Notes: generated by a model not told the origin, from the letters alone. Counted from the first letter of the stretch, positions 5,888-36,691 are shown. The stretch: 64,000 bases of DNA from an uncultured Acidobacteriota bacterium (GCA_964561785.1 CAZLRF010000009.1:41686-105685); one strand, 5' to 3'. A program made the numbers and translations.

Positions 5888-7005
5888 TGGACCCGCTGCG
5901 CCACGTGAAGCCGGCGGTGCGGGCCCAGAAGGCCTACACCCTCGCCCTGCGCGAGGCCCCGGTCAAGCTCAACCAGAACGAGAACCCGTGGGACCTCCCG
6001 GAGGCCTTCAAGCGGCGAGTCCTCGAGAGAGCGCTCCTGCGGCCGTGGTCCCGCTACCCCGACTTCGACCCGAGGGAGCTCCTCGCGGCGCTCGCCGGTT
6101 TCTCGGGCTGGAGGGCGGACGGGATCCTCGCCGGCAACGGCTCGAACGAGCTCATCGAGGCGCTGCTCCTCGTGACCGTCTCTCCCGGCACGAGGGTCGT
6201 CATCCCGCAGCCGACCTTCACCCTGTACTCCTCGATGACGACGATCCTCGGCGGCGAGCCGGCCTTCGTGCCGCTGCGGCGAGAGCCTCCCGACGGCGGG
6301 TTCGCCTACGACGTCGGGGAGCTCCTCGCCGCGCGCGAGGCGAGCCGCGCGTCGGTCACCATCGTCTGCTCGCCCAACAACCCCACCGGCACGAGCCTCC
6401 CCCTCGCCGACGTCGAGCGGCTGTGCGCCGCGAACGACTCGCTGGTGGTCGTCGACGAGGCCTACCACGAGTTCTGCGGGCGATCCGCGGTCCCCCTCCT
6501 GGAGCGACACCCGAACCTCGTCGTCCTGCGCACCTTCTCGAAGGCGATGGCGCTCGCCGGGCTCCGGGTCGGATACCTGCTCGCCTCGCCCGACCTCGTG
6601 CGCGAGGTGAACAAGGCGCGCCTGCCCTACAACGTCAACTTCTTCTCGCAGGCCGCGGCCATCGCGGCGATCGAGGAGTACGAGGCGGTGCTCGCGCCGA
6701 CCGTGCGCGCCCTGGCGGCGGAGCGGGAGCGGCTCCTGTCCCGGCTCGCCGACGTGCCGGGGGTCCGGGCCCACGCCTCGGACGCGAACTTCTTCCTGCT
6801 CGAGCTGACGGGCGCCGACCCCGGGGCCGTCTTCGCCTCGCTCCTGCGCCGGGGCGTGCTCGTGCGCGACGTGACGTCGTACCCGATGCTCTCCTCGTTC
6901 CTGCGCGTGAGCGTGGGGTCCGCGGAGGAGAACGACGCCTTCCTGCGCGCCCTGGGGACGGCTCTCACGGAGGCCGGCATGGATCTCACGACGGGGAGGG
7001 CCTGA
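5884..7005 (+). CDS. hisC: histidinol-phosphate aminotransferase
   Basis: Class II PLP aminotransferase (KLNQNENP, CSPNNPTG, RTFSKAMALAGLRVGY); start overlaps hisD stop. Confidence 0.9.
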   Translation: MMDPLRHVKPAVRAQKAYTLALREAPVKLNQNENPWDLPEAFKRRVLERALLRPWSRYPDFDPRELLAALAGFSGWRADGILAGNGSNELIEALLLVTVSPGTRVVIPQPTFTLYSSMTTILGGEPAFVPLRREPPDGGFAYDVGELLAAREASRASVTIVCSPNNPTGTSLPLADVERLCAANDSLVVVDEAYHEFCGRSAVPLLERHPNLVVLRTFSKAMALAGLRVGYLLASPDLVREVNKARLPYNVNFFSQAAAIAAIEEYEAVLAPTVRALAAERERLLSRLADVPGVRAHASDANFFLLELTGADPGAVFASLLRRGVLVRDVTSYPMLSSFLRVSVGSAEENDAFLRALGTALTEAGMDLTTGRA

Positions 7006-9777: not shown

Positions 9778-14197
<4,420 letters not shown>

Positions 14198-14201
<4 letters not shown>

Positions 14202-14851
14202 GCCGGCTCTTCGTGAAGGTCTGCGGTATCACGTCGCCCGAGGACGCGGCGCTCGCGGCCGAGGCGGGGGCCGACGCGGTCGGCCTCGTCTTCTGGCGGA
14301 AGAGCCCGCGGGCGGTGACCGTCGAGGCGGCCCGGAGGATCGGCGAGGCCCTGCCGCCCTCGGTGGTGCGCGTCGGCGTCTTCGTGGACGCCTCCCGGGA
14401 CGAGATGGCGCGGGCGGCCGACGCCGCCTCTCTCGACCTGCTGCAGCTGCACGGGGACGAGCCCCCCGAGGCGTGCGAGGGCCTGCCGCGCCGGGCGTGG
14501 AAGGCGCTGCGCGTGGGCGAGGGCTTCGCGCCGGAGGACGCGCGGCGCTACGAGGGCCGCGTGGCGGGGATCCTCCTCGACACCGGCGGCGGCGAGCCCG
14601 GGGGCACCGGCCGCGCGTTCGACTGGTCGCTCGCACGGGGCGTGCGCGAGCGGGCCCGCTTCCTCGTGCTCGCGGGCGGCCTCGGGCCCGACAACGTCCG
14701 CAACGCCGTCGCGGCCGTGCGTCCCGACGGCGTCGACGCGTCGAGCCGCCTGGAGAGAGAGCCGGGGCGGAAGGACCCCGCGAAGGTGAGGGCGTTCGTG
14801 CAGGCGGCGCGCGCCGCGACGGCGGACCCCGGGGAGGACGAGGAGGCATGA
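14198..14851 (+). CDS. trpF: phosphoribosylanthranilate isomerase
   Basis: PRAI ([33 protein letters not shown]); GTGA overlap. Confidence 0.88.
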
Positions 14852-16155
14852 GCACGGCACGGCACGCGGGCGTCTGGCCCGACGCAGCGGGGCGCTTCGG
14901 GCCCTACGGCGGGCGCTACGTCCCCGAGACCCTCATGGAGCCGCTGCGCGAGCTCGAGGAGGCGTATGCCTCCGCCCGCCGCGACCCCGGCTTCGAGGCG
15001 GAGCTGCAGAGGCTGCTGCGCGACTACGTGGGCCGGCCGACGCCTCTCGGCCTCGCCGCGCGGCTGTCGGAGCGCCTCGGCTGCCGGGTCTGGATGAAGC
15101 GCGAGGACCTCTGCCACACCGGCGCTCACAAGATCAACAACGCGCTCGGCCAGGCGCTCCTCGTGAAGCGGATGGGAAAGACGCGGGTCGTGGCCGAGAC
15201 CGGGGCCGGCCAGCACGGCGTCGCCACCGCCACCGTCTGCGCGCTGCTCGGGCTCGAGTGCGTCGTCTACATGGGCACCGAGGACATCGCCCGCCAGGCC
15301 CCGAACGTGAAGCGCATGCGGCTCCTCGGGGCGGAGGTGCGCGGCGTCGACTCGGGCACGCGCACGCTGAAGGACGCGATCAACGAGGCGATGCGCGACT
15401 GGGTCACGAACGTGCGCACGACCCACTACCTCCTCGGCTCCGTCCTCGGCTCGCACCCGTACCCGGCCATGGTGCGGGACTTCCAGGCGGTGATCGGCCG
15501 CGAGGCCCGCGCGCAGGTCCTCGAGGCGGACGGCCGTCTGCCCGACCTGCTGGTCGCCTGCGTGGGCGGCGGCTCGAACGCGATCGGCCTCTTCTTCGCC
15601 TTCCTCGAGGACGGGGGCGTGCGGATGGTGGGGGTCGAGGCGGGCGGGCGCGGGACGCGGCCCGGCGAGCACGCCGCGCGCTTCCTCGCCGAAGACGGAT
15701 CCGGGGCCGGCGTGGGCGTTCTCCAGGGCACCCGGACGTACCTCCTGCAGGACGCGGCCGGCAACGTGCTCGCGACCCACTCGGTCTCGGCCGGCCTCGA
15801 CTACCCGGCGGTGGGCCCCGAGCACGCGCTGCTGCACGACGAGGGTCGGGTCGAGTACGCCGCGGCGAGCGACGAGGAGGCCCTCGCCGCCTTCCACCTC
15901 CTGGGCGAGACCGAGGGCGTGCTGCCCGCCCTCGAGTCGGCTCACGCGGTGGCCTGGCTCGTCCGCGAGGCCAAGTCCCTCGCCGGCCGGACGGTCGTCC
16001 TCAACCTCAGCGGGAGAGGCGACAAAGATCTGGGGATACTCGAGCTCGAAGCCAAGCGACGCCACGGCAATCCAGGGGGGTCTGGGGGGATGGAGTCCCC
16101 CCAGAACAAGGAAGCCGGCACCGGCCTGGGCTTCGATGGTCGCAAGTCCCGATGA
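14848..16155 (+). CDS. trpB: tryptophan synthase beta chain, with ~30-aa low-complexity C-terminal extension
   Basis: PLP-dependent TrpB ([30 protein letters not shown]) followed by a Gly/Pro-rich tail ([14 protein letters not shown]...). ATGA overlap with trpF. Confidence 0.9.
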
Positions 16156-16200
16156 TCTTCGCTCACCCCACCCGGTGCACGGCTGCTTCGGAGGACTGAG

Positions 16201-16629
16201 ATGAAGCGCACGAACGTCAAGGGGAACAGCCCCTACGAGCCGATCGTCGGCTACTCGCGGGCGGTGCGCGTCGGGGCGCACGTGGTCGTGGCCGGCACCA
16301 CCGCCACCGGCGAGGACGGGAAGATCGTGGGCAGGGGCGACGCCTACGCCCAGGCCGTGCAGTGCTTCCGCAACATCGAGAGGGCCCTGCACGAGGCGGG
16401 GGCCAACTTCCGCGACGTGGTGCGCACGCGCATGTACGTGACCGACATCTCGCGCTGGGAGGCGGTGGGGCGCGCCCACGGCCAGATCTTCCGCGACATC
16501 CGGCCCGCGGCCACGATGGTGGAGGTGAGCCGCCTCGTGGACCCCGACATGCTGGTCGAGATCGAGGTCGAGGCGGTGGTGGGGGAGGACACGACGCAGC
16601 GCCTGCCGAAGAAGGGAGTGGGCCGGTGA
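16201..16629 (+). CDS. ridA: RidA/YjgF/TdcF-family reactive-intermediate (enamine/imine) deaminase-like protein
   Basis: 142 aa with the YjgF fold signature ([47 protein letters not shown]). Inserted between trpB and trpA. Confidence 0.7.
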
Positions 16630-16657
16630 GGGTCTCGACGCGGGAGGCCCGCTAGCG

Positions 16658-17434
16658 ATGGGCCGCATCGGGGCGCGCTTCGCGCGGAGGAGGGCCGAGG
16701 GGAAGCCGGCCTTCGTGGCGTTCCTGACCGCCGGCGACCCCTCGCTCGACGGCACGGTCGAGGCCGCGGTCGCCCTCGACGCGGCGGGCGCCGACGTCCT
16801 CGAGCTCGGGGTGCCGTTCTCCGACCCGCTGGCCGACGGGCCGGTCATCCAGCGCTCGAGCGAGCGGGCCCTCGCACGCGGCGTCACCCTCGAGGGCGTC
16901 CTCGGCGCGGTGCGGCGGATCCGCGAGCGGAGCGAGCTGCCGCTGCTGCTGTTCAGCTACGTGAACCCGCTCCTGCAGTACGGCCTCGAGCGCCTGGCCC
17001 GGGACGCGAAGGCGGCGGGAGCGGACGGGGCGCTGGTGACGGACCTCCCGCCGGAGGAGGCCGGGGAGTGGATCCCCGCCGCGCGCGCGGCGGACCTCGA
17101 CACGGTCTTCCTCGCCTCGCCCACGAGCCCGCCGGAGCGGCTGCGCCTCGTCGCGGAGGCGAGCCGCGGGTTCGTCTACGCGATCAGCCGGACGGGCGTG
17201 ACGGGGGAGCGCCAGGCGCTCTCGGCCGACGCCCGGCCGCTCGTCGAGCGGCTGCGGGCGCTCACGGACGTGCCGGTCGCGCTGGGCTTCGGCATCGGGA
17301 CCCCGGAGCAGGTGCGCGAGGCGGCGGCGGTGGCGGACGGGGTCGTGGTCGGGAGCGCGCTCGTGCGCTTCCTGGAGGAGCACCCGGAGGGGGACCTCGG
17401 GGCTCGGGTGAGATGGCTGACGAGCACGACATAG
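16658..17434 (+). CDS. trpA: tryptophan synthase alpha chain
   Basis: TrpA TIM barrel (FVAFLTAGDP, LELGVPFSDPLADGPVIQ, GFGIGT). Confidence 0.9.
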   Translation: MGRIGARFARRRAEGKPAFVAFLTAGDPSLDGTVEAAVALDAAGADVLELGVPFSDPLADGPVIQRSSERALARGVTLEGVLGAVRRIRERSELPLLLFSYVNPLLQYGLERLARDAKAAGADGALVTDLPPEEAGEWIPAARAADLDTVFLASPTSPPERLRLVAEASRGFVYAISRTGVTGERQALSADARPLVERLRALTDVPVALGFGIGTPEQVREAAAVADGVVVGSALVRFLEEHPEGDLGARVRWLTSTT

Positions 17435-17859
17435 GCGGGAAGACGGACCGGCCGCCGAAGATCCCCGCGCGGCCCGCGCCCCCGGGCGCCACGGCCGCGG
17501 AGGCGGTCCGCCCCGAAGAGGGAGCGGCCTCCCGCGGTGCGGCCCAGGTGGGCGAGCTGCGCCGGCGGATCGACCAGATCGACGATCAGCTCATGAAGCT
17601 GCTGAACGCGCGCTCGGCGTGCGCGGTGGAGATCGGGCGGATCAAGCGCCGGATCGGGATGGCGGTCTACCAGCCCGAGCGGGAGAAGTGGATCCTCGAA
17701 CGAGCCGAGCGCAACAACCCCGGCCCGCTCGACGCGAGCGCGGTGCGGCGGGTGTTCGAGCGCGTGATCGACGAGAGCCGTCGCCTCGAGCGCCTGGCCG
17801 GCGAGGCCGAGGCGCGCGGCGCGGCGGACGCGGCGGCGGAGCCCCCGGGCGAGCGGTAG
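17413..17859 (+). CDS. aroQ: chorismate mutase (AroQ class) with Pro/Ala-rich N-terminal extension
   Basis: AroQ helix motifs (LRRRIDQIDDQLMKLLNARSACAVEIGRIK, YQPEREKWILER). ATG 17413 overlaps trpA by 22 nt; an internal GTG near 17548 would give a canonical ~100-aa enzyme. Confidence 0.7.
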   Translation: MADEHDIGGKTDRPPKIPARPAPPGATAAEAVRPEEGAASRGAAQVGELRRRIDQIDDQLMKLLNARSACAVEIGRIKRRIGMAVYQPEREKWILERAERNNPGPLDASAVRRVFERVIDESRRLERLAGEAEARGAADAAAEPPGER

Positions 17860-17872
17860 GGAAGGAGACGAG

Positions 17873-18910
17873 GTGTCCATGGTCATCGTGATGGAGCATA
17901 CGGCCAGCGAGGAGAACGTCCAGAGGGTCATCGAGTCGCTGGTCGAGGCGGGCTACGACGTCCACCGCTCGAGCGGCGTCGACTTCACCGTCCTCGGCGC
18001 GGTGGGGGTCCCCACGCGGCCCGTCGACCCGAGGCTCGTCGAGGTCCTGCCCGGCGTGCGCGAGGTCGTCCGCGTCTCCGAGCCCTACAAGCTCGCCGGC
18101 CGCACGTTCAAGCCCGAGGACACGGTGGTCGACGTGGGGGGGGTCGGGGTGGGCGGGCCGGAGGTGATCGTCATGGCCGGACCCTGCTCGGTCGAGGGCC
18201 CGGACCAGGTGGGGGCGGTGGCGCGCTCGGTCGCCGCGTCGGGCGCGCGCGTGCTCCGCGGGGGCGCCTTCAAGCCCCGGACGTCGCCCTACTCCTTCCA
18301 GGGCCACGGCGAAGCGGCGCTCGGGTGGATGCGCGCCGCGGCCGACGCGAACGGCATGGCGGTGGTGAGCGAGGTCATGGACCCCCGGCAGATCGAGATG
18401 ATGATGCGCCACGTCGACTGCCTGCAGGTTGGTGCCCGCAACATGCAGAACTTCGAGCTGCTGAAGGAGCTCGGCCGCGTGCGCAAGCCGGTCCTCCTCA
18501 AGCGCGGCCTCTCCGCGACCATCGAGGAGTGGCTCCTCTCCGCGGAGTACGTGCTCTCCGGGGGGAACGGCCAGGTGATCCTGTGCGAGCGCGGGATCCG
18601 CACCTTCGAGAGCTACACCCGCAACACGCTCGACATCTCCGCGATCCCGGTGGTGAAGAAGCGGAGCCACCTGCCGATCGTGGTCGACCCGAGCCACGGC
18701 ACCGGCCGGCGCGAGAAGGTCATCCCCATGGCCCGGGCCGCGGTCGCGGCGGGCGCCGACGGCCTCCTGATCGAGGTCCACGACAACCCCGAGAAGGCCC
18801 TCTCCGACGGCCCCCAGAGCCTCTACCCCGACCAGTTCGACCGGCTCATGGGGGAGCTGCGGATCATCGCCCCTGTCCTCGGGCGGTCCATTCCCCTCGC
18901 GCGGGGCTGA
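17873..18910 (+). CDS. 3-deoxy-7-phosphoheptulonate (DAHP) synthase, class I-beta, with N-terminal ferredoxin-like regulatory domain
   Basis: KDO8PS-like catalytic core (VMAGPCSVEG, KPRTSPYSFQG, VVDPSHGTG) preceded by a ~70-aa FL/ACT-like domain, as in the Thermotoga-type allosteric enzyme. Strong SD GGAAGGAGA upstream. Confidence 0.85.
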   Translation: MSMVIVMEHTASEENVQRVIESLVEAGYDVHRSSGVDFTVLGAVGVPTRPVDPRLVEVLPGVREVVRVSEPYKLAGRTFKPEDTVVDVGGVGVGGPEVIVMAGPCSVEGPDQVGAVARSVAASGARVLRGGAFKPRTSPYSFQGHGEAALGWMRAAADANGMAVVSEVMDPRQIEMMMRHVDCLQVGARNMQNFELLKELGRVRKPVLLKRGLSATIEEWLLSAEYVLSGGNGQVILCERGIRTFESYTRNTLDISAIPVVKKRSHLPIVVDPSHGTGRREKVIPMARAAVAAGADGLLIEVHDNPEKALSDGPQSLYPDQFDRLMGELRIIAPVLGRSIPLARG

Positions 18911-18986: not shown

Positions 18987-20057
18987 CTAGGCCACGCGCC
19001 CCGGCCCGCCGCTCGGCAGGCGCAGCTCCACCCGGAACTCCGATACGCCCGGCCGCGCCTCGACGAGCGCGCCGTCGCCGTGCAGGGCGGCGAGCCGGCG
19101 CCTGACGTTCTGCAGGCCGATCCCGGTGCCCTTCCGTGCCGGGGCGTCGGGATCACGCGGGTTGGTGACCGCGATCCGCAGCTCGTCCCCCCGCCGCGCG
19201 GCCTCGATGCGGATCTCGCCGCCGTCGAGCCGCTGGGCGATGCCGTGGGTGACCGCGTTCTCGACGAGGGGCTGGAGGAGGAGGGGGGGGACCGGGCAGG
19301 CCCGCGCCGCCTCGTCGGCCGCCACCGTGTGCGAGAGCCGCTCGCCGAAGCGCACCTTCTCGATCGCGAGCAGCTGCAGGGCGAGGTCGAGCTCCTCGGC
19401 GAGGGGGATCGACTCGCGGGCGCCCACGGTGAGGCTGCGGCGGAGGAAGTCGGCGAGCCCCACGCACAGCCGCCGCGCCTCCTCCGGCCGCGAGGCGATG
19501 AGGGCGTTGATCGAGTTGAGGCTGTTGAAGAGGAAGTGGGGGTGGATCTGCGCCCGCAGCGCGCGCAGCTCCGCCTCGCGCGAGGCGATCTCGAGCTCGA
19601 GGGCCCTCCGCTCGGCCGCCTGCGACGCGCCGAGCGCGAGGAGCAGGTAGTGCAGCGCGGAGGTCAGCAGGAAGAGGGCCACCCCGAGGCCGAGGAGGAG
19701 GGGCGCCGTCTCCAGCTGCCGGGCGAGGAGGCCGGGGAAGACGTCGAGGCGGTCGAGGAGGGACGCCCACGCGCGGGCGGCGGCCAGCCAGAGGACGGCG
19801 GAGACGGAAGCGGCGACGAGCTGGGCGCCCAGCGAGCGGAGGAGGCGCGAGAGGCGGAGCGGGGCGGCCTGGCACACCCAGAACGCGCCGAGGCCGACGA
19901 AGCCGAACACCAGCGCGAGGGGCACGGCGAAGACGAGCGCCTCCGTCCACGCGAACGGGGCGGCGAGCACGAGCTGCCCCCCGACCAGAGCGCCGACGAG
20001 CGCCCACGCGGCGAGGTAGGCCCCGAACCGGCGCCAGTCGGCGAGGATCGGGTGCAT
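18987..20057 (-). CDS. LytS/YehU-family sensor histidine kinase (membrane)
   Basis: N-terminal TM helices; His_kinase (PF06580-type) H-box HPHFLFNSLNSINALI; HATPase_c G-box GTGIGLQNVRRRL. Confidence 0.8.
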   Translation of the reverse strand: MHPILADWRRFGAYLAAWALVGALVGGQLVLAAPFAWTEALVFAVPLALVFGFVGLGAFWVCQAAPLRLSRLLRSLGAQLVAASVSAVLWLAAARAWASLLDRLDVFPGLLARQLETAPLLLGLGVALFLLTSALHYLLLALGASQAAERRALELEIASREAELRALRAQIHPHFLFNSLNSINALIASRPEEARRLCVGLADFLRRSLTVGARESIPLAEELDLALQLLAIEKVRFGERLSHTVAADEAARACPVPPLLLQPLVENAVTHGIAQRLDGGEIRIEAARRGDELRIAVTNPRDPDAPARKGTGIGLQNVRRRLAALHGDGALVEARPGVSEFRVELRLPSGGPGRVA

Positions 20058-20060
20058 GGG

Positions 20061-20786
20061 TCAGTTCTTGACCTCGACGCCTCCCATGATCGCGAGGCCG
20101 GTGACCACGAGGCGGCGCCTCGACCCGGCCAGAGGCCGCGCGTTGTTCACGAAGCCCCCGAGCACGGCGTTGCCCCGGCTCACGACCTCCCAGTCGTCGG
20201 GCACCTTGATCTCGATGCCGCCCCAGAACGCGAACGTGTCGATCACGGCGGGACGCCCCTCCGGCATCGACGCGCCGCGCAGGTCGATCTCGCAGCCGCC
20301 CATCACCGCCGTGGCCTGGCCGCCCTTGAAGTCCGCCGTCGTGATCACCGTCTTGGTGCCGCCCATGAACTGCACGAGGTCGAGGGCGGGGGAGGCGTCG
20401 GCGGGGACGGGCGGCGGGCGCAGGGCCTTCCACGCGATGTTGGCGCCGACGGCGAAGATCACGAGGGCCCACACGCCGGCGAACGACATCCGGCCCAGGC
20501 TCACGAGGAGGAAGGCGAGGCCGGCCACGATCCAGACGATCGCCGAGGAGCCACGCCCCGTCGGCGAGAGCAGCTTGACCACCCCGACCGCGACGAGGGC
20601 GAGGGGCCAGAAGCGGAACAGCGTGCTTCCGTCCACGAGGCCGAGGCTGTCGAGGGCGAGCACGAGCCCCGCGAGCATGATCGCGAGGCCGACGACGAGC
20701 CGGGGGGTGATCCTGACGTCGGCCGCCGGCTTCTCGGGGTTCCACGGGGGGGTCATCTCCTGCCTCCGACCATAACTTACGGCCAA
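20061..20786 (-). CDS. LiaF-like / DUF2154-type membrane protein (putative kinase-associated stress module)
   Basis: 3-4 TM helices followed by a beta-rich C-terminal domain (GGTKTVITTADFKGG...GGIEIKVPDDWEVV...GGVEVKN) resembling LiaF/YvqF. Located 3 nt upstream of the histidine kinase on the same strand. Confidence 0.55.
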   Translation of the reverse strand: MAVSYGRRQEMTPPWNPEKPAADVRITPRLVVGLAIMLAGLVLALDSLGLVDGSTLFRFWPLALVAVGVVKLLSPTGRGSSAIVWIVAGLAFLLVSLGRMSFAGVWALVIFAVGANIAWKALRPPPVPADASPALDLVQFMGGTKTVITTADFKGGQATAVMGGCEIDLRGASMPEGRPAVIDTFAFWGGIEIKVPDDWEVVSRGNAVLGGFVNNARPLAGSRRRLVVTGLAIMGGVEVKN

Positions 20787-20881
20787 ACAGCAGCTTCCGA
20801 AAGGCGCGAATCGGCCAACTCCCGGCCGAAGCCGGCGGGTGACGGGGCCTTTCGACCTAGAATGCCGTAGATCGAGGCGGC

Positions 20882-22534
20882 ATGATCGGCCAGACCCTGT
20901 CGCACTACAAGGTGATCGAGGAGCTCGGCCGGGGCGGGATCGGCGTCGTCTACCGGGCGCTCGACACGACGCTCGGGCGGGAGGTCGCCCTCAAGGTCCT
21001 CGGCCCCGCGGCAGGGCGCGACGCCGAGCAGCAGCGCCGGCTCGAGCAGGAGGCGCGGGCGGCGGCCGCGCTCGCCCACCCCGCGGTCGCGGTCGTCTAC
21101 GAGATCGACGAGGCGGAGGGGGTCACGTTCATCGCGATGGAGCTCGTCCGGGGACGCCCCCTCGCCGCCCTCGTCGCCTCGACGCCCCTCGAGCCCGCGC
21201 GCGGGCTCGACCTCGCGATCGAGATCGCCGAGGGTCTCGCAGAGGCCCACGCCCGCGGCGTCGTCCACCGCGACCTCAAGCCGAAGAACGTCATGCTGAC
21301 CGAGTCGGGCCACGCGAAGATCATCGACTTCGGGCTCGCCAAGCTCCTGCGCCCGCGTCCCCCGTTCGAGAGCGGGGCGGACACGCCGGCGTGGGGCGAC
21401 ACCGACCCCGGCCGCATCCTCGGCACCGCCGCCTACATGTCGCCCGAGCAGGTGCGGGGAGCCGACGTCGACGCGCGCAGCGACCTGTTCTCCTTCGGGG
21501 CGCTCCTCTACGAGGTCCTGGCCGGCGAGCCGGCGTTCCGGCGCGAGACCGGGGTCGAGACGCTGCACGCGGTGCTGAAGGAGCCGGCGCCGCGCCTGCG
21601 CGGGGCGGGGCTCGGCGCGGCGGCGCCCGTCGTCGAGCGCGTGCTCGACCGCTGCCTCGCCAAGTCGCCGCAGGACCGCTACCCGTCGGCGGCCGAGCTC
21701 CTCGCGGACCTGCGCGAGGCGCGACGCCGCCTCGAGGCCGCCTCGGACCCCGCGAGGCGGCCCCCGCCCGCGCCTCCCGTCGCCTCGCCCCCGCCCGCCG
21801 TCCTGCGGGCGCTCGTCGTCGACGACGAGGAGCCGGCCCGCCAGATCCTGCGCGAGTACCTCGGCCGGGCCGGGGGGGTCGAGGTGGTCGGGGAGTGCCG
21901 CAACGGCTTCGAGGCGGTCAAGGCGGTGAACGACCTGCGGCCGGACCTCCTGTTCCTCGACGTCCAGATGCCGAAGCTCGACGGCTTCGAGGTCCTCGAG
22001 CTGCTGGGCAGGGACGTCGCCGTGGTGTTCGTCACCGCCTTCGACGAGCACGCGATCCGCGCGTTCGAGGTGAACGCGGTCGACTACATCCTCAAGCCCG
22101 TGTCGCCCGAGCGTGTCGTGGCCGCCCTCGACCGGGCGCGCCGGCGGCTCCTCTCCCGTACGCCCCTGCCGGCGGCCGCGCTCGCCGCCGCCGCCCGGCC
22201 GGCCGGAGAGCCCGTCTCGCGCATCGTCGTCCGCCAGGGGCCGCGCGTCCACGTGATCCCCGCGGAGAAGCTCGACTACGCGGAGGCCCAGGACGACTAC
22301 GTGGCCCTCCACGCGGAGGGCCGCTCGCACCTCAAGCAGCAGACCCTGGCCGACCTCGAGGGCTCGCTCGATCCCCGCCGCTTCGTGCGGATCCACCGCT
22401 CGTACCTGCTCAACCTCGACCGCCTCGCCCGCATCGACTCCGAGGGCGGCGAGCCGAAGGCCGTGGTGCTCGCGGACGGGACGCGGCTGCCCCTGAGCCG
22501 CTCCGGGTACGGCCGGCTGAAGGGGCTGCTGTAG
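20882..22534 (+). CDS. hybrid Hanks-type Ser/Thr protein kinase fused to a LytTR-family response regulator (STK-REC-LytTR)
   Basis: Kinase subdomains (LGRGGIGVVY, VALKVL, HRDLKPKNVML, DFGLAK, GTAAYMSPE); Pro-rich linker; REC (LVVDDEEPARQIL, LLFLDVQMPKLDG, VVFVTAF, YILKP); LytTR (VVRQGPRVHVIPAEKLDYAEAQDDYVALHAEGRSHL...FVRIHRSYLLNLDRL). One continuous 550-aa frame. Confidence 0.8.
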   Translation: MIGQTLSHYKVIEELGRGGIGVVYRALDTTLGREVALKVLGPAAGRDAEQQRRLEQEARAAAALAHPAVAVVYEIDEAEGVTFIAMELVRGRPLAALVASTPLEPARGLDLAIEIAEGLAEAHARGVVHRDLKPKNVMLTESGHAKIIDFGLAKLLRPRPPFESGADTPAWGDTDPGRILGTAAYMSPEQVRGADVDARSDLFSFGALLYEVLAGEPAFRRETGVETLHAVLKEPAPRLRGAGLGAAAPVVERVLDRCLAKSPQDRYPSAAELLADLREARRRLEAASDPARRPPPAPPVASPPPAVLRALVVDDEEPARQILREYLGRAGGVEVVGECRNGFEAVKAVNDLRPDLLFLDVQMPKLDGFEVLELLGRDVAVVFVTAFDEHAIRAFEVNAVDYILKPVSPERVVAALDRARRRLLSRTPLPAAALAAAARPAGEPVSRIVVRQGPRVHVIPAEKLDYAEAQDDYVALHAEGRSHLKQQTLADLEGSLDPRRFVRIHRSYLLNLDRLARIDSEGGEPKAVVLADGTRLPLSRSGYGRLKGLL

Positions 22535-22536
22535 GC

Positions 22537-23256
22537 CTAGGCCTCGCGGGCCTCGTCCGCCCCGATCGCGGGCAGGAGGCGCTCGGGGGCGGGGCTGTCG
22601 AGGAAGAGCAGGTTGAGCCGCGGCTGACCGTCCGCGCCGATCGAGATGTTGCGCACCTCGGCCCGCGTCTTGAAGTCCCCGCCGATCTCCTCGACCTGGA
22701 GGATCGCGCCCTTGAGCACGGGGAGGGTGACCGCCCGGACCCGGGCCCCCCACAGGCTCACGTCCTCGGCGACGGTCCTCTCCTCGACCGCGATCCCGCC
22801 GGGGGCGTGCTCCGCCTCGAGCCGCAGGCTGAGCCGTGCCACGTGGCGGGGGAACTTGCGCCGCTCGACGGGGACGGGGTCGCCGGGCATCAGGAACAGC
22901 TCGCCCGGGAGCGACTGCGCTCCCCGCGGCGGGTTCTTGCCGAGGAAGACGACGCCGATGCGCAGCCCGCCGCCCGGAGCGGGGCGCGCGTTGCGGACGA
23001 GCGTGTAGACGCGGTACGAGGGGTCGGTGAGGTCGTACTGCCGGAAGCGCTGGGGCAGCGGGAGCGAGAGGTGGAGGACCTGGCCGAGGACCACCGGTCG
23101 GCTCAGCCGCAGGCCGACGCCCCCCGGGGAGGCGTCCTCGCAGGTCGCCATCTCCTCCCAGGTCGTCCCGTCGCTCTCGCGCCCCTGGACGCGCACCGGG
23201 AGCTTGAGGGGAACACGCCTCTGCTTCCGGCGCTCGGCCCCGCCTCCCTGGGTCAT
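22537..23256 (-). CDS. tandem PilZ-domain protein (putative c-di-GMP receptor)
   Basis: Two PilZ signatures: RRVPLKLPVRV...EDASPGGVGL and RRKFPRHVARL...EDVSLWGARV (RxxxR + DxSxxG). The ORF upstream of 23256 is antisense to the ABC ATPase and was trimmed. Confidence 0.65.
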   Translation of the reverse strand: MTQGGGAERRKQRRVPLKLPVRVQGRESDGTTWEEMATCEDASPGGVGLRLSRPVVLGQVLHLSLPLPQRFRQYDLTDPSYRVYTLVRNARPAPGGGLRIGVVFLGKNPPRGAQSLPGELFLMPGDPVPVERRKFPRHVARLSLRLEAEHAPGGIAVEERTVAEDVSLWGARVRAVTLPVLKGAILQVEEIGGDFKTRAEVRNISIGADGQPRLNLLFLDSPAPERLLPAIGADEAREA

Positions 23257-23298: not shown

Positions 23299-24072
23299 AT
23301 GAGCGACGCGTTCGCGATCGAGGTCGAGGGGCTGACCAAGGTCTTCCGGGGGAAGACCGCGGTCGACCGGCTGTCCTTCCGGGTCGCGAGGGGGCGCTTC
23401 TTCGGCTTCCTCGGGCCGAACGGGGCGGGCAAGAGCACCACGATGCGGATGCTCACCGGGCTCCTGCGGCCCACCTCCGGGGACGCGGCCGTCCTCGGGG
23501 TGCGGCTCTCCGGCGACCTCCTCGCCCTCAAGCGAAGGATCGGCGTCGTCCCCGAGGAGCTGCCCCTGTACGAGCGGCTGACCGGCGAGGAGCACCTGCT
23601 CTTCGCCGCCCGCATGCACGGCCTCCCGCGTCCCGAGGCCCGCCGGCGCGCGGAGGAGCTGCTCGAGTTCCTCTCGCTCGCCGACGAGCGGGGCAAGCTC
23701 GTCGTGGACTACTCGCAGGGCATGCGCAAGAAGCTGGCCCTCGCCTGCGCGCTCGTCCACGGGCCCTCGGCGCTCTTCCTCGACGAGCCGCTCAACGGCA
23801 TCGACCCCGTGGCCGGGCGCGTGGTGAGCGACCTCCTGCGGCGGCTCACCGCGCGCGGGGTGACGCTGTTCTTCACCTCTCACGTGCTCGACGTGGTCGA
23901 GCGCCTGTGCGACGAGGTCGCGGTCGTCGACCGGGGGCGCATCGTGGCCCAGGGGACGCTCGACGAGATCAGGGCCCAGCGCGCGATCGCGGGCGGGGCG
24001 TCGCTCGAGGACGTGTTCCTGAAGCTCGTCGACGCGGACGTGAGGCGCGAGGACCTCTCGTGGATCGCCTGA
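23299..24072 (+). CDS. ABC transporter ATP-binding protein (ABC-2 type)
   Basis: Walker A GPNGAGKST, signature-like YSQGMRKKLALA, Walker B LFLDEP. Confidence 0.85.
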   Translation: MSDAFAIEVEGLTKVFRGKTAVDRLSFRVARGRFFGFLGPNGAGKSTTMRMLTGLLRPTSGDAAVLGVRLSGDLLALKRRIGVVPEELPLYERLTGEEHLLFAARMHGLPRPEARRRAEELLEFLSLADERGKLVVDYSQGMRKKLALACALVHGPSALFLDEPLNGIDPVAGRVVSDLLRRLTARGVTLFFTSHVLDVVERLCDEVAVVDRGRIVAQGTLDEIRAQRAIAGGASLEDVFLKLVDADVRREDLSWIA

Positions 24073-25655
24073 TCGCGCTCGTGGCGCTGCGCTTCAGGCT
24101 CGAGGCGCGGGCCCTCCTCGGCGCCCGCGGGCGCCTCGTGGCGCTCCTCGTGGCCCTGCCCCTCCTCCTGCTCCTCTCCGCGGCCACGGCGGGCCTCGCC
24201 TTTCTCGCCGCACGCGTGGTCGAGCGCGAGGAGCCGGCGCTCGTCCTCCCCGCGCTCTCCGCGGCGTCGGCCGTGCTCGGGCTCGCCTGGGCCCTCTCGC
24301 CCTTCCTCGCGGGCGTCTTCGCCACCGAGACCCACGACCTCGGCCGGCTCGTGGTCTACCCGGTGTCGTTCGCGACGCTCGTGGTCTCGTCGCTCGCCGC
24401 GAACGTCGTGCAGCCGGTGGTGCTGGCCCAGGTCCCGGTCCTCGTCGCCCTCGGCCTCGGCCTCGCCGGGGCGCATCCCCGGCTCCTGCCCGCGCTCGCG
24501 GGGCTCGCCCTCGCCTTCGCGCTCGTCCTCGCCACGGGGCAGGCGGTGGGGATCGCCCTGCACGCCGTCTCCCGCCACCGCCGCCACCACGATCGCGTGC
24601 TCCTCCTCGGTCTCGGGCTCGGGATCGCCCTGAGCCTGCTGCCCCTCCTCCTGCTCTCGCCCGGGGGCGGCGGCGCCCGCCGCCTCGCTCTCTCCCTCGT
24701 CGAGCGCGACGTGTTCGCCCTCGTTCCCCTCTCCTGGGGGGTCCGGGCGGCGGTGCACGCGGGCCGGGGCGAGGCTCTCTCGTTCCTGGGCTGGGCGACC
24801 GGGGCCGCCCTGGCCCTGGCCGCGGCCCTCGGCGTCTCGACGCTCCTCGCGCGGCGTCTCTACCGCGGCGAGGCCGACCTCGGCGAGGCGACGGGAGGCC
24901 GATCGGCCCGGGCCCGCATGCCCCTGCCGGGGGCGGTGGGCGCTCTCGTCGAGAAGGACCTGCGCGTCGCCTGGCGCGACCCCCGGCTGAAGGCGCTCGT
25001 CTTCAGCGGCCTCGTCGGGCCCCTCGTCCTGCTCTTCGTGCTCGGCCAGGGCGGGGGGGCGCGCCCGTCGCTGCTCCTCGCGGTCGCGGTGCTGTCGGGC
25101 CTCGGGGCGGTGGGCGCCAACACGTTCGCCTTCGAGCGGCAGGGGCTCGCGCTCCTCCTCGGCAGTCCTCTCGACCGGCTCTCGCTCCTCGTCGGGAAGA
25201 ACATCGCCCTCGTCGCCCTGCGCCTGCCCGTCGTCCTCGCCATCGCCCTCGCCACGCTGCTCGTCGCCGGGCCCGCCTTCGTCCCCGCGGTCGCGACGGT
25301 CGCCCTCTCGACCCTCGTCCTCGCCGCCGCCGCCGACAGCTACCTCTCGATCCTCGTCCCGCTGCCGGTGTCGGCCGCGGGGCGCGACCCGAGCACGCCC
25401 GCCTCCGGCACGCGCGGGCTCGGGACCCTGGTCGCCCTCGTCCCCGCCCTGCTGGCCACCCTCGCCGCGGCCGTCCCGTTCGCGTTCCTCGCCTGGCTGC
25501 CGCTTCTCCTCGGCGAGCCGTGGCTCGCCGTCGCCACCCTTCCCCTCGCCCTCGCCGGCGCCGCCGCCGTCCACTTCATGGCCGTGGCGGGCGCGGCGCG
25601 GCTGCTCGAGCGGCGCGAGGGCGACCTCGTGGCGCGCCTCGCCGGGGAGGACTGA
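24060..25655 (+). CDS. ABC transporter permease (ABC-2 family, polytopic membrane protein)
   Basis: ~10 predicted TM helices, Leu/Ala-rich; GTG 24060 overlaps the ATPase stop by 13 nt; start uncertain. Confidence 0.6.
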   Translation: MDRLIALVALRFRLEARALLGARGRLVALLVALPLLLLLSAATAGLAFLAARVVEREEPALVLPALSAASAVLGLAWALSPFLAGVFATETHDLGRLVVYPVSFATLVVSSLAANVVQPVVLAQVPVLVALGLGLAGAHPRLLPALAGLALAFALVLATGQAVGIALHAVSRHRRHHDRVLLLGLGLGIALSLLPLLLLSPGGGGARRLALSLVERDVFALVPLSWGVRAAVHAGRGEALSFLGWATGAALALAAALGVSTLLARRLYRGEADLGEATGGRSARARMPLPGAVGALVEKDLRVAWRDPRLKALVFSGLVGPLVLLFVLGQGGGARPSLLLAVAVLSGLGAVGANTFAFERQGLALLLGSPLDRLSLLVGKNIALVALRLPVVLAIALATLLVAGPAFVPAVATVALSTLVLAAAADSYLSILVPLPVSAAGRDPSTPASGTRGLGTLVALVPALLATLAAAVPFAFLAWLPLLLGEPWLAVATLPLALAGAAAVHFMAVAGAARLLERREGDLVARLAGED

Positions 25656-25656
25656 C

Positions 25657-26415
25657 GTGGCGCGACGCCCCCGGGTGGCGATCGTCGGCCTCGGCCTCGT
25701 CGGGGGCTCGCTCGCCCGCGCGCTCCGCGCCGCCGGCCACCACGTCACCGGCATCGACTGGCCCCACGTCGTGCGCCGCGCCCTGCGCTCGCGCGCGATC
25801 TCGGCGGGGGCGACCCGGACCGAGCGGGGCGCGGAGGCCGACGTCGTGGTCCTCGCGGCCCCGCCCGCCACGAACCTGCGCCTCCTGCGCCGCCTCGCGA
25901 AGGTGGCCCGGCCCGGCCTCGTGGTCACGGACGTGTCGAGCGTGAAGGGCGACATCGTGCGCGAGGCGGCGCGGCTCCGCCTCGAGGGCTTCGTCGGCGG
26001 ACACCCGATGGCCGGCACCGAGAAGCGGGGCTTCGCCGCCGCGCGGGCGGACCTGTTCCGCGGCGCTTCGTGGTGGCTCGTGCCCGGGCGCTCCGCGCGC
26101 GCCACGCGCGCCGTGCGCGGGCTCGTCCTCGCCGCGGGCGCGCGCCCGGTCCTGACCGACGCCGCGACCCACGACCGCGCCATGGCGTTCCTGAGCCACG
26201 TCCCGCAGGTCGTCGCCTGGGCGCTCTTCGACGCGGCCCGGCTGGACCCGGTGGCGCGTCGGCACCTGCGCCGGGCGGGCCCCGGCTTCCGGGGCATGAC
26301 CCGCCTCGCCCGCAGCCCCCGCCCCCTGTGGCGCGACATCCTCGACGCCAACCGCCTCGAGGTGCGCCGCGCCCTCGGCGCGCTCGCGAGGCAGATCGAG
26401 AGGAGGAGACCGTGA
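25657..26415 (+). CDS. tyrA: prephenate dehydrogenase
   Basis: Rossmann VAIVGLGLVGGSLA; PDH core (VTDVSSVKG, GGHPMAG). Confidence 0.8.
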   Translation: MARRPRVAIVGLGLVGGSLARALRAAGHHVTGIDWPHVVRRALRSRAISAGATRTERGAEADVVVLAAPPATNLRLLRRLAKVARPGLVVTDVSSVKGDIVREAARLRLEGFVGGHPMAGTEKRGFAAARADLFRGASWWLVPGRSARATRAVRGLVLAAGARPVLTDAATHDRAMAFLSHVPQVVAWALFDAARLDPVARRHLRRAGPGFRGMTRLARSPRPLWRDILDANRLEVRRALGALARQIERRRP

Positions 26416-33868: not shown

Positions 33869-35377
33869 ATGGCCACCGACGACCCCTCGTCCAACCCGCC
33901 GCCCGCCGCGGACGCGGAGCCGAAGGCCGCGAGTCCGGCCGACAGCGCCGCGCGCAGCGGCGCCCACCGCAACGGCGGACACCGTCGCGGGCGCGGCGGC
34001 CCGAAGGGCGAGCACTCCCCGCGCAAGCCGCGCCTGCCCCAGCGGGACGTCGAGGAGGACGAGCCGGTTCCGGACACGGTCGCCGGTGCCGAGGGGGAGG
34101 GGACGGAGGAGGAGGGCAACCGGCTCGACCTCGCCGTCCTCAAGGAGATGAGCATCCAGAAGCTCATCGAGGTGGCGAAGGAGCTGGAGATCCCCGGCGC
34201 GACCTCCATGAAGAAGCAGGAGCTCGTCTTCCAGATCCTGCGCGCCCAGGCGGAGAAGGAGGGCCTCATCTTCTCCGAGGGCGTCCTCGAGATCCTGCCC
34301 GACGGCTTCGGCTTCCTGCGCGCCCCCGAGTACTGCTACCTCCCCGGGCCGGACGACATCTACGTGTCCCCCTCGCAGATCCGCAAGTTCGACCTGCGCA
34401 CGGGCGACACGATCAGCGGCCAGATCCGGCCCCCGAAGGAGGACGAGCGTTACTTCGCCCTCATCAAGGTGGACGCGGTCAACTTCGAGCCGCCCGACCG
34501 CGCGAAGGAGAAGATCTTCTTCGACAACCTGACCCCTCTGTACCCGCAGGGGCGGATCAGGCTCGAGACGACGCCCGACCAGCTCACGACCCGGGTGATG
34601 GATCTGCTCTGCCCGCTCGGCAAGGGGCAGCGCGCCCTCATCGTGGCCGCCCCCCGCACGGGCAAGACCATGATCCTCCAGGCGATCGCCAACGCGGTCA
34701 CCACGAACCACCCGGAGATCGTCCTCATCGTGCTGCTCATCGACGAGCGGCCCGAGGAGGTGACCGACATGCAGCGCTCGGTCCACGGGGAGGTCATCTC
34801 CTCGACGTTCGACGAGCCGGCCGACCGGCACGTCCAGGTGGCGGAGATGGTCCTCGAGAAAGCCAAGCGCCTCGTCGAGCACAAGAAGGACGTGGTGATC
34901 CTGCTCGACTCGATCACCCGTCTCGCCCGGGCCTACAACACGATCGTCCCGCCCTCGGGCAAGGTCCTCTCGGGCGGCGTCGACTCGAACGCGCTCCAGC
35001 GGCCCAAGCGTTTCTTCGGGGCCGCCCGCAACGTGGAGGAGGGGGGCTCGCTCACGATCATCGCGACCGCGCTCGTCGAGACGGGGTCGAGGATGGACGA
35101 GGTCATCTTCGAGGAGTTCAAGGGCACCGGCAACGCCGAGATCGTCCTCGACCGCAAGCTCACCGACAAGCGGATCTTCCCGTCGCTCGACATCAACCGC
35201 TCGGGCACCCGCAAGGAGGAGCTGCTCGTCCCCGCCGCCGAGCTCAACCGGGCGTGGATCCTGCGCAAGGTCCTCTCCGCGCTCTCGCCGGTCGAGGCGA
35301 TGGAGCTGCTCCTCGAGCGGCTCTCGAAGAGCAAGAGCAACCGCGAGTTCCTCGAGAGCATGTCGGCCGGCGGGTAG
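33869..35377 (+). CDS. rho: transcription termination factor Rho (with charged low-complexity N-terminal insertion)
   Basis: Rho N-terminal domain ([18 protein letters not shown]), CSD-like RNA-binding domain, RecA-like ATPase (Walker [17 protein letters not shown]). Start placed at ATG 33869, downstream of the promoter. Confidence 0.9.
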
Positions 35378-35387
35378 CCGCCCGCTC

Positions 35388-35828
35388 TCACATCCCGGGG
35401 TCGGGGCTGACGTCGCCCAGCCCGGCGCGGATCGTGAGCGACATCGTCTGCGACATCAGGTTCTTCCCCGACTTGCGCAGCGTGATCTTGACCCGGTAGA
35501 CGCCGGCGTGCTGGAACGTGTGGTGAGCGGTGTAGCGGCGCTGGATCGCCGTGCCCTCGGTCCACGGGTCGCAGTCCGACTCCTGGACGCTCTTGCCGCC
35601 GTCGTCCCACTCCCATTCGACCTCGGGGCAGTAGAGCTCCTCGACGTCGTCGCCGCCCTTGAGCTCCGCCGTGAACATGATGTTGGCCGGCGAGAACGCG
35701 AAGCGCGGCGTGGAGCGCAGCTCGAGGGCGGGCTTCTTGCCCTTCTTGGGCTTCTCCTCCCCCCCTGCGAGCGGGACGTGGGCGAGGCCGAGAGACAGCG
35801 CGGCGACGACGGCGACGAGCTTGCGCAC
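35388..35828 (-). CDS. small secreted single-PKD-domain protein
   Basis: Signal peptide MRKLVAVVAALSLGLA; PKD signatures WEWDDGGKS and HTFQHAGVYRVKITL. Confidence 0.55.
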   Translation of the reverse strand: MRKLVAVVAALSLGLAHVPLAGGEEKPKKGKKPALELRSTPRFAFSPANIMFTAELKGGDDVEELYCPEVEWEWDDGGKSVQESDCDPWTEGTAIQRRYTAHHTFQHAGVYRVKITLRKSGKNLMSQTMSLTIRAGLGDVSPDPGM

Positions 35829-35877
35829 GAAATGCTCCTTGCTTCGGATGCCCCTTTTGCCATTCTAGTCCGAGTCG

Positions 35878-35949
35878 GGGGTCAGATCTTGAATCTGCTC
35901 ATCGGGCGGGCCGCGGGCCGCGGGATGCGTCGATTCAAGATCTGACCCC
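35878..35949. repeat. perfect 18-bp inverted repeat (GGGGTCAGATCTTGAATC ... GATTCAAGATCTGACCCC) with 36-nt GC-rich spacer, overlapping the putative promoter of the downstream Fic-like gene
   Basis: Arms 35878-35895 and 35932-35949 are exact reverse complements; each arm contains an AGATCT palindrome; TAGAAT -10-like box at 35967-35972. Confidence 0.5.
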
Positions 35950-35989
35950 TTCACGACCTACACGGGGACGCCCCGTAGAATGGCGGGGC

Positions 35990-36691
35990 ATGAGCACGCC
36001 GCTGCGTCTGCAGCCCTCGCCCGCCGTCAAGGAGAAGCGCCTCGCCTCGCTCCTCGCAGAGCGGGGCCTTGAGGCGGACGACCCCGCGCTCGCGGGGCTG
36101 GTCGAGGACGCCCAGCTCCTCGGGAGCCTCGAGCTCGCCGGCGTGCGCGCCTCGTGGGACGAGGTGCGGGCCTCGCGCGAGCCGGGCCGGGGGGCGGCCG
36201 AGGTCCTGGCCCTGCGGCGGGCGCGGGCGGCGGTCGCGAGGGACGCCCCGTTCGGCGTCGCCGCCCTGCGCGCGTGGCACGAGGCCATCGCGGGCCCCGT
36301 CGGCTACCGCACGGGCGAGCGCGAGCGGGAGGGGCCGCCGCCCGCGCCCGCCGAGTTCATCGAGAGCCGGCTCGCCACTCTCGAGGAGTGGCTGGAGATG
36401 GCCGGGTCGCGGGACCTGCGGCCCGAGCAGGCGGCCGCCGTGGCCCTCGCCCGCGTCGTCGAGATCCTGCCCTGGGACGACGCGAACGGCCGCGTCTCGC
36501 GCCTCGCCGCGTCCCACCTCATGGAGAGGGGCGGGATGCGCCCGCCGATCCTGGTCGCCGGCGACGCCCCGCGCCTGCGCGCGGCGCTCGAGTCGGCCTT
36601 CCAGCTCGAGACCGGGCCGCTCGTCGACCTCCTCGTCGAGGCCTCGGGCCGCGCCCTCGACGTGATGATCCAATCGCTCAGCGCACGCTGA
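35990..36691 (+). CDS. Fic/DOC (Fido)-like protein with degenerate active-site motif
   Basis: ILPWDDANGRVSR aligns with the Fic motif HPFx(D/E)GNGRxxR but carries H->L and G->A substitutions. Confidence 0.4.
   Translation: MSTPLRLQPSPAVKEKRLASLLAERGLEADDPALAGLVEDAQLLGSLELAGVRASWDEVRASREPGRGAAEVLALRRARAAVARDAPFGVAALRAWHEAIAGPVGYRTGEREREGPPPAPAEFIESRLATLEEWLEMAGSRDLRPEQAAAVALARVVEILPWDDANGRVSRLAASHLMERGGMRPPILVAGDAPRLRAALESAFQLETGPLVDLLVEASGRALDVMIQSLSAR

Follow-up and report, generated by a model that had tools for sequence, protein, structure and literature searches.

A PknB-like Ser/Thr kinase domain fused to a LytTR response regulator in a Lia-like module of soil Acidobacteriota

Hanks-type Ser/Thr kinases are known to cross-talk with two-component systems, as in the action of Stk1 on VraR, GraR, and WalR, and VraR is phosphorylated by this Hanks kinase additionally. 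The field is active yet hard to study: the kinases act on many substrates, through weak contacts between separate proteins. Domains of both kinds can also be part of one chain, since cyanobacterial HstK-type proteins have a Ser/Thr kinase joined to a histidine kinase. To our knowledge, no described protein fuses a Ser/Thr kinase to a receiver and a LytTR DNA-binding domain. Here, we analyzed a stretch of 64,000 nucleotides from an uncultured Acidobacteriota bacterium (CAZLRF010000009.1:41686-105685; G+C content of about 75%), referred to below as the window, in which a single gene at positions 20882 to 22534 (plus strand) encodes such a fusion. The gene is divergent from a pair of genes encoding a LiaF-like membrane protein and a histidine kinase (HK). 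LytTR-encoding operons with LiaI-LiaF-TM/Toastrack proteins have been described, and no kinase fusion is described there (PMC11237479).

The fusion gene is an unbroken open reading frame (ORF) of 550 amino acids (aa) made up of a PknB-like Ser/Thr kinase, a disordered linker, a receiver (REC), and a LytTR domain. All three domains score above their Pfam cut-offs: Pkinase at aa 9 to 274 (20906 to 21703; 148.5 bits, cut-off 31.7), Response_reg at aa 311 to 416 (21812 to 22129; 83.3 bits, cut-off 30.2), and LytTR at aa 455 to 549 (22244 to 22528; 71.3 bits, cut-off 22.6). An earlier note, made from the sequence of the window, had proposed exactly this: one 550-aa frame holding a Hanks kinase, a Pro-rich linker, a receiver with its phospho-acceptor Asp in the motif LFLDVQMP, and a LytTR domain. 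Indeed, the Asp is D360, and the linker is a Pro/Ala-rich tether at aa 288 to 305 (21743 to 21796) that is predicted to be disordered. Structures of Mycobacterium tuberculosis PknB match the kinase half at E = 1e-49. The best solved match to the receiver is 6m8o, deposited as "DNA-binding response regulator," which we take to be the receiver of Staphylococcus aureus LytR. For the REC-LytTR half, the best named NCBIfam match is BtsR, with 167.3 bits against an equivalog cut-off of 246, and NCBIfam LytR scores 89.5 bits against a cut-off of 375.

The window protein is one of a large family. Using it as the seed, we searched 5.8 billion clustered proteins and obtained at least 120 clusters (90% identity) whose members are 79 to 100% identical to it, all with Pkinase, Response_reg, and LytTR. 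With a Bryobacterales homolog as the seed, a second search returned at least 120 further clusters, 67 to 100% identical to that seed and of identical architecture. This gives at least 240 clusters at 90% identity with the fusion architecture, from JGI, ENA, NCBI, and Logan assemblies, in two fused clades, Vicinamibacteria and Bryobacterales. Among 1.84 billion representatives at 50% identity, full-length clusters number a handful (P0121, P0123, P0126, and the frameshifted P0177). The family, as sampled by these searches, is thus narrow in sequence space yet abundant in soil metagenomes, and it is not rare. Its members carry automatic annotations such as "protein kinase [Vicinamibacteria bacterium]" (NCBI) or "LytT family response regulator" (JGI), and no description of a Pkinase-REC-LytTR protein was found in the literature searched, which comprised open-access papers only. 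The family is uncharacterized, though the databases hold hundreds of auto-annotated copies. The earlier note had not recognized the architecture as a described regulator class; the literature searched contains nothing to the contrary, but with hundreds of database proteins the architecture is not rare. Two further candidates did not hold up. Other top representative hits might have been REC-LytTR-kinase fusions, but the six two-stretch hits that were scanned are all tandem-kinase proteins. P0177 might have been a natural kinase-receiver protein lacking LytTR, but its contig (L169) is frameshifted and LytTR coding continues in other frames. Chains with 4 to 6 kinase stretches, P0122, P0128, P0132, and P0199 among them, reach up to 7165 aa.

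We examined conservation in an alignment of 129 fused proteins, which come from both clades and include the distant P0123 and P0126. In the kinase, G16, G18, G21, K38, E57, H129-R130-D131, N136, D149-F150-G151, and S187-P188 are invariant (129/129), while T182, of the activation loop, and E189 are each kept in 128 of the 129, with one substitution apiece. T168 and T174, also in the activation loop, do not vary within or between the two clades; T174 aligns with T171 of PknB, a regulatory autophosphorylation site of that enzyme. The receiver is equally well preserved, with D314, D315, the phospho-acceptor D360, T385, and K405 invariant in all 129. The window kinase thus combines the Pkinase profile with the full set of catalytic motifs of Hanks-type Ser/Thr kinases; the receiver combines the Response_reg profile with the acidic pocket (DD), Asp, Thr/Ser, and Lys of CheY-like receivers; and the C-terminal domain has the profile of LytTR regulators. 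Its sequence marks the first domain as a genuine Hanks kinase, and the residues for both kinds of phosphorylation seem preserved and under purifying selection. Y326 was considered as a fusion-specific candidate for cis phosphorylation and was rejected, since it is also found in the nearest unfused regulators.

The two divergent genes were confirmed on the opposite strand, as the earlier note had claimed. The HK gene (18987 to 20057, minus strand) encodes 356 aa with His_kinase (PF06580; 83.6 bits) and HATPase_c (28.2 bits) domains and an IHPHFLFNSLN phospho-acceptor His box. Direct reading of the sequence places four hydrophobic transmembrane (TM) helices, joined by very short loops, ahead of these domains, and for this reason the HK looks intramembrane-sensing; Pfam detected no 5TMR_LYT or GAF domain in it. 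Pkinase, Response_reg, LytTR, His_kinase, and HATPase_c, the profiles by which the note had proposed to check the domains, all score above the cut-off or match. The LiaF-like gene (20061 to 20756, minus strand) encodes 231 aa from a conserved ATG, with a LiaI-LiaF 4-TM domain. Here the profiles give a divided answer: LiaF-TM (40.4 bits) and LiaI-LiaF-like_TM1 (36.4 bits) are both above the cut-off, whereas LiaF-like_C (Toastrack/DUF2154) reaches 22.1 bits, below its cut-off of 29; in the homolog from locus L003 the same profile gives 31.8 bits. The locus, then, encodes a LiaF-type accessory protein together with a two-component pair.

Gene coordinates in the earlier note were correct, as was the gap of 3 nucleotides (nt) between the LiaF-like stop and the HK start. 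The divergent gap was not. Its 95 bp apply only to the longest LiaF-like ORF (20061 to 20786, minus strand), which begins at a TTG. The LiaF-like gene is called at 227 to 232 aa in seven of the eight related loci (267 aa in L167), and an alignment of the loci has an invariant ATG after GGAGG, corresponding in the window to the ATG at 20756 and a Shine-Dalgarno sequence at 20763 to 20767. Because this ATG and Shine-Dalgarno sequence set the start, we place the gene at 20061 to 20756 and the divergent region at 20757 to 20881, a length of 125 bp.

The arrangement of the three genes is conserved. In all eight Vicinamibacteria loci, HK and LiaF-like genes run away from the fusion gene in the same order, while the outer flanks vary (DAHP synthase, sulfatase, methyltransferase, WYL regulator, MacB). 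In the Bryobacterales loci (L002 to L004) and in L169, LiaF-like, HK, and fusion genes follow one another on one strand, and in L003 and L004 the HK ORF shares 8 nt with the fusion ORF. We also inspected 15 loci (L006 to L018, L020, and L031) reached through a plain REC-LytTR gene at 57 to 62% identity, among the matches listed. Every one has the order LiaF-like, HK, REC-LytTR, and all are from Acidobacteriota except one bin labeled Limnocylindrales. The REC-LytTR half is 57 to 64% identical to that of the related regulators of LiaF/HK modules. On this synteny, the three genes are one module, and the unfused version is a common acidobacterial operon. Since the unfused operons share the gene order, the ancestral unit was a Lia-like three-gene module, with a LytS-class kinase and a LytTR regulator, to which the kinase domain was added later. 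It is from synteny and the overlapping genes only that we infer the HK to be cognate to the receiver.

The 125-bp divergent region is strongly conserved, with many invariant columns in an alignment of nine Vicinamibacteria loci. Rfam gave no hit in it at E ≤ 1, and with RNAalifold compensatory pairs numbered 0 and the covariation term was positive. These results speak against a structured RNA or riboswitch, and the region is therefore best read as a DNA control sequence. Within it, at 20810 to 20836 (minus strand), lies a direct repeat that is a candidate LytTR operator. Read in the LiaF orientation, it is CCCGCCGGC-N12-TTGGCCGAT, that is, GCCGGC-N15-GCCGAT in a 21-bp register, with half-sites at 20831 to 20836 (GCCGGC) and 20810 to 20815 (GCCGAT). 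It precedes the LiaF-like ATG by 54 nt and the fusion ATG by 45 nt. We defined the pattern GCCGRY-N15-GCCGAT from the Vicinamibacteria loci alone. There are 2 matches to it in the window, with 0.19 expected, and 24 in the 2.9 million strand-positions of all fetched loci; 16 of the 24 lie upstream of LiaF-like genes, on the strand of the gene. Outside Vicinamibacteria, the pattern is present within 500 nt upstream of 6 of 29 LiaF-like genes, and the same 29 upstream regions contain it neither at any other spacing from 5 to 30 nor in reverse orientation. Versions with one mismatch occur in L003, L004, and L017. The exact pattern is also seen away from LiaF-like genes, at 1041 to 1067 (minus strand) of the window and at 6799 to 6825 (plus strand) of L002; these may be chance occurrences or further sites of a regulon.

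The geometry of the candidate operator agrees with what is reported for LytTR sites: almost all LytTR regulators bind two repeats of 9 to 11 nt with spacers of 11 to 13 nt (PMC4847170). A divergent region of this kind has a precedent in the P2/P3 region of AgrA (PMC4227749). Given LytTR geometry in a region shared by both transcription units, autoregulation of the LiaF-like-HK operon and of the regulator's own gene is likely. A scan for sigma-70 consensus promoters and terminators found none in 20650 to 20950, so what we say of promoters rests on conserved hexamers. The -10-like hexamer TAGAAT (20858 to 20863, plus strand) is invariant in the alignment of loci and ends 18 nt before the fusion ATG, which would imply a very short leader. 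On the other side, the alignment places a palindrome, CTTCCGAAAG, at 20794 to 20803, between the operator and TAAGTT, a -10-like hexamer for the LiaF-like gene; in the other eight loci the palindrome reads CTTCCGGAAG. In L163, about 100 nt are inserted between TAGAAT and the fusion ATG (about 2890 to 2990; alignment columns 154 to 254). The insertion holds a GC-rich inverted repeat (GACCCGCGCGGAGCGCGGGTC) and is possibly a small mobile or REP-like element.

The fusion probably has more than one origin. We built simple neighbor-joining (distance) trees from each half of the protein. In the REC-LytTR trees, the fused proteins of Vicinamibacteria form a clade with 100% support, those of Bryobacterales fall among unfused regulators in a different 100%-supported clade, and none of 100 bootstrap trees makes the fused proteins monophyletic. 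The kinase tree has a 100%-supported split that separates the two fused clades, with unfused kinases on both sides. The kinase half of the window protein is 54 to 58% identical to free-standing kinases of about 550 to 1,020 aa and 42 to 44% identical to the fused kinases of Bryobacterales. Most of the free-standing relatives that were scanned have TPR, PD40, FGE-sulfatase, or CsgG-like regions after the kinase domain. In the fusion, REC-LytTR takes the place of this usual C-terminal sensor or scaffold tail of the nearest unfused kinases. These trees and identities suggest that the regulator acquired its kinase in at least two independent events; one ancient fusion, with later losses and domain replacement, is the less parsimonious alternative. 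The parts can also be found next to each other. In L080 (3566 to 7818), an HK gene, a 251-aa REC-LytTR gene, and a 782-aa kinase-TPR gene are consecutive and separate, with about 70 nt between regulator and kinase and the order reversed relative to the fusion. L003 holds at 11051 to 11770, 3.4 kb downstream of its fused gene, a partial copy of the REC-LytTR half of that gene that is 99% identical (232/235 aa) and lacks the first 13 or so receiver residues. Either a recent duplication of this segment or an artifact of long-read assembly would account for it.

What might such a protein do? The best explanation, in our view, is that the regulator of an acidobacterial membrane-stress-type module has acquired a catalytically competent PknB-like domain at its N terminus, making a relay from His-Asp to Ser/Thr phosphorylation within one factor; we hold this tentatively, at a little less than an even chance. 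The relay would begin with the LiaF-like protein and the HK detecting a membrane or envelope cue, upon which the HK would phosphorylate D360; synteny and the intact motifs point to this step. The phosphorylated receiver would dimerize, and the LytTR domains would bind the repeat at 20810 to 20836, so that both the LiaF-like-HK operon and the regulator's own gene would be regulated. Dimerization or DNA binding would also unite the tethered kinase domains, allowing trans-autophosphorylation at T174 and thereby activation. The active kinase could then provide a second output, Ser/Thr phosphorylation of other proteins, or feed back on the regulator. In bacteria, Hanks kinases generally become active upon dimerization, which is driven by the part of the protein on the C-terminal side of the kinase domain. 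We favor a receiver-gated second output because Hanks kinases are activated in this way and because the window kinase has no sensor domains of its own. In its most specific form, the protein would be a receiver-gated Hanks kinase delivered to promoters by LytTR, with the HK signal turning on both transcription and a DNA-tethered Ser/Thr kinase. This specific form is conceivable, though we consider it somewhat unlikely. If it is true, substrates of the tethered kinase might include RNA polymerase, co-bound factors, or the LiaF/HK sensor complex.

Less exciting explanations have to be weighed. A collapsed stop codon or a frameshift could have merged a kinase gene with a separate response-regulator gene, and the locus does exist in noisy long-read assemblies, L169 being frameshifted in several module genes. 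The in-frame architecture, however, recurs across the at least 240 clusters and all four sources of assemblies, and an identical 550-aa protein is recorded from two contigs (NCBI and JGI). An alignment of the linkers adds that their lengths vary across the family by whole codons. So many independent in-frame clusters, together with whole-codon differences, rule out such an artifact as an explanation for the family, and we give it practically no credence. Another explanation takes the kinase domain as a noncatalytic module for dimerization or scaffolding in what works as an ordinary LytTR response regulator. Back-to-back dimers of the kinase domain are possible, as L31 aligns with PknB L33, which we take to be part of the back-to-back dimer interface, and no substrate of the kinase is known. 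Yet the G-loop, K38, E57, HRD, N136, DFG, and SPE are conserved between clades that are only about 50% identical overall. Conservation of the catalytic residues and of T168 and T174 in the activation loop makes a pseudokinase unlikely, and we would be considerably surprised to find one here.

A more serious competitor reverses the direction of the signal: the tethered kinase would be a second input. In cis or within a dimer, it would phosphorylate the linker, receiver, or LytTR domain of its own protein and so tune DNA binding, either independently of D360 phosphorylation or jointly with it. Two phosphorylation inputs would meet on one transcription factor, in a hard-wired form of the cross-talk from Stk1 to VraR. 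The same would hold for the cross-talk from StkP to ComE, in which experiments show that phosphorylation of ComE at T128 raises dimerization and DNA binding (PMC6010298). Tethering gives a very high local concentration of substrate, the catalytic residues are invariant, and the independent fusions argue for a direct relationship between kinase and regulator. Potential sites are at hand as well, with Ser and Thr in the linkers and a semiconserved "DS" right after the kinase domain in both clades. On the other hand, none of the sensor domains of the free-standing relatives is left in the kinase, which has no evident signal of its own. No Ser or Thr is conserved specifically in the fused REC-LytTR: T385, T488, S507, and S539 are equally conserved in unfused regulators. 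The segment between REC and LytTR, where by estimate and not by alignment the ComE T128 site would fall, has no Ser or Thr conserved across both fused clades. We consider the second input conceivable though somewhat unlikely. The data do not separate receiver-gated output from kinase as input, the two options that the earlier note had named, and the two are not mutually exclusive.

Several observations weigh against the relay from His-Asp to Ser/Thr phosphorylation that we prefer. AF2 modeled the kinase and the receiver confidently but found no confident packing between domains (pTM 0.52). The tether, whose length ranges from about 15 to 45 residues across the family by the linker alignment, has a pLDDT of about 26 in the window protein; the LytTR region was modeled poorly, with a pLDDT of about 36 to 67 and partly helical assignments in place of the mainly beta-strand LytTR fold, and this part of the model is unreliable. 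No REC-LytTR residue is specific to fused proteins, which leaves no signature of coadaptation, and nothing we computed ties control of the kinase to receiver phosphorylation or names its substrates. An output domain is found less often on the N-terminal side of a receiver than on its C-terminal side. The pairing of HK and receiver is drawn from synteny, the trees are simple neighbor-joining trees, and the distant fused protein P0126 (locus L170; 44% identity) has no gene for a LiaF-like protein or a LytS-class HK within about 4 kb. In L170, the P0126 gene adjoins genes for a TPR protein and an OmpR-type regulator.

The fusion is a covalent, one-to-one pairing of kinase and regulator that seems to have arisen at least twice. 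This makes a strong "Rosetta-stone" case that cells benefit from having a LiaF-associated LytTR regulator coupled to a PknB-like kinase. The protein does not represent new signaling chemistry, and no phenotype is known. It does offer a minimal soluble protein for asking whether a receiver controls a kinase or a kinase controls a regulator, with the predicted operator as a read-out. The family is also abundant in Acidobacteriota of soil, in the Vicinamibacteria and the Bryobacterales; these are major soil bacteria that are still poorly understood.

Around the module, two neighbors recur. A PilZ-domain gene (22537 to 23256, minus strand; about 239 aa from the ATG at 23256) is convergent on the fusion gene and is a conserved neighbor in six of the eight related loci; it is possibly a further part of the system. 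An ABC transporter follows at 23299 to 25655 (plus strand), with the ATPase at 23299 to 24072 and a 12TM_1-type permease from about 24060 to 25655. It is downstream in seven of the eight Vicinamibacteria loci and starts 6 nt past the fusion gene in L163. By synteny, and by analogy with other envelope-stress modules, it is a plausible target operon; upstream of it we found no exact match to the operator, only the half-site-like ATCGGATAAC. Module, PilZ, and ABC genes lie within a cluster for aromatic amino acid biosynthesis (window 12240 to 18910 and 25657 to 26415), which has indole-3-glycerol-phosphate synthase, PRAI, TrpB, TrpA, chorismate mutase, and DAHP synthase upstream and prephenate dehydrogenase downstream. 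The order of the cluster around the module is identical in L081 and L082. Elsewhere in the window, the G+C fraction dips to 0.677 at 34001 to 36000, compared with about 0.75 in other parts. Tandem arrays of 3 to 5 Hanks kinase genes occur in L025 to L027, L039, L043, L049, L053, and L071 (Acidobacteriota, Ignavibacteria, Krumholzibacteriia, and Zixibacteria).

Among the closest known systems are the unfused, uncharacterized acidobacterial operons of LiaF-like, HK, and REC-LytTR genes. They contain the same three gene families, with 57 to 62% identity in REC-LytTR and 39 to 48% in the HK, and several share GCCGRY-N15-GCCGAT upstream of the LiaF-like gene. Their regulator has no kinase domain, however, and their genes are codirectional, whereas the regulator gene of the window is divergent. 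LiaFSR of Bacillus subtilis and VraTSR of Staphylococcus aureus are similar in having a LiaI-LiaF-TM/Toastrack protein encoded directly before an HK without an extracytoplasmic domain, together with its regulator, and autoregulation is likely in the window, as in these systems. The phosphorylation of VraR by Stk1 also sets a precedent for kinase input into a Lia-type regulator. The HK in the window, in contrast, is of the PF06580 (LytS) class, not HisKA_3; the output domain is LytTR instead of an HTH of the NarL/LuxR type; there is no adjacent gene for PspA/LiaH or LiaI; and the Ser/Thr kinase is fused, not separate. The earlier note had called the locus a LiaFSR-like module built from LytS and LytTR parts. 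As topology this is fair, and the locus probably works like a Lia module, but the classes of its kinase and output domain set it outside the LiaFSR/VraTSR family.

Among systems with LytTR output, LytSR, BtsSR (YehUT), and YpdAB likewise pair an HK of PF06580 and HATPase_c with a REC-LytTR regulator, and they bind direct repeats whose spacer is about 12 nt long (PMC4847170). The HK of the window has four TM helices without the 5TMR_LYT or GAF domain of BtsSR and LytSR, and a LiaF-like partner and a fused kinase are added. Although the window has a pair of the LytS/LytTR class, the BtsR and LytR scores, both below their cut-offs, indicate that it is not an equivalog of BtsSR or LytSR. Nor does it resemble the LytTR Regulatory Systems, which consist of a receiver-less LytTR protein and a membrane inhibitor (PMC6193735), as the window has a receiver and an adjacent HK. 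StkP and ComE of Streptococcus pneumoniae provide a functional parallel, a PknB-family kinase acting on a REC-LytTR regulator that has its own HK (PMC6010298). StkP is a separate membrane protein with PASTA domains and many substrates, whereas the window kinase is tethered and has no sensor, and the equivalent of ComE T128 is not conserved in the fusion. Compared with the HstK-type fusions, finally, the window protein likewise unites Ser/Thr and His-Asp signaling domains in one polypeptide, but it joins the kinase to a receiver and a LytTR domain.

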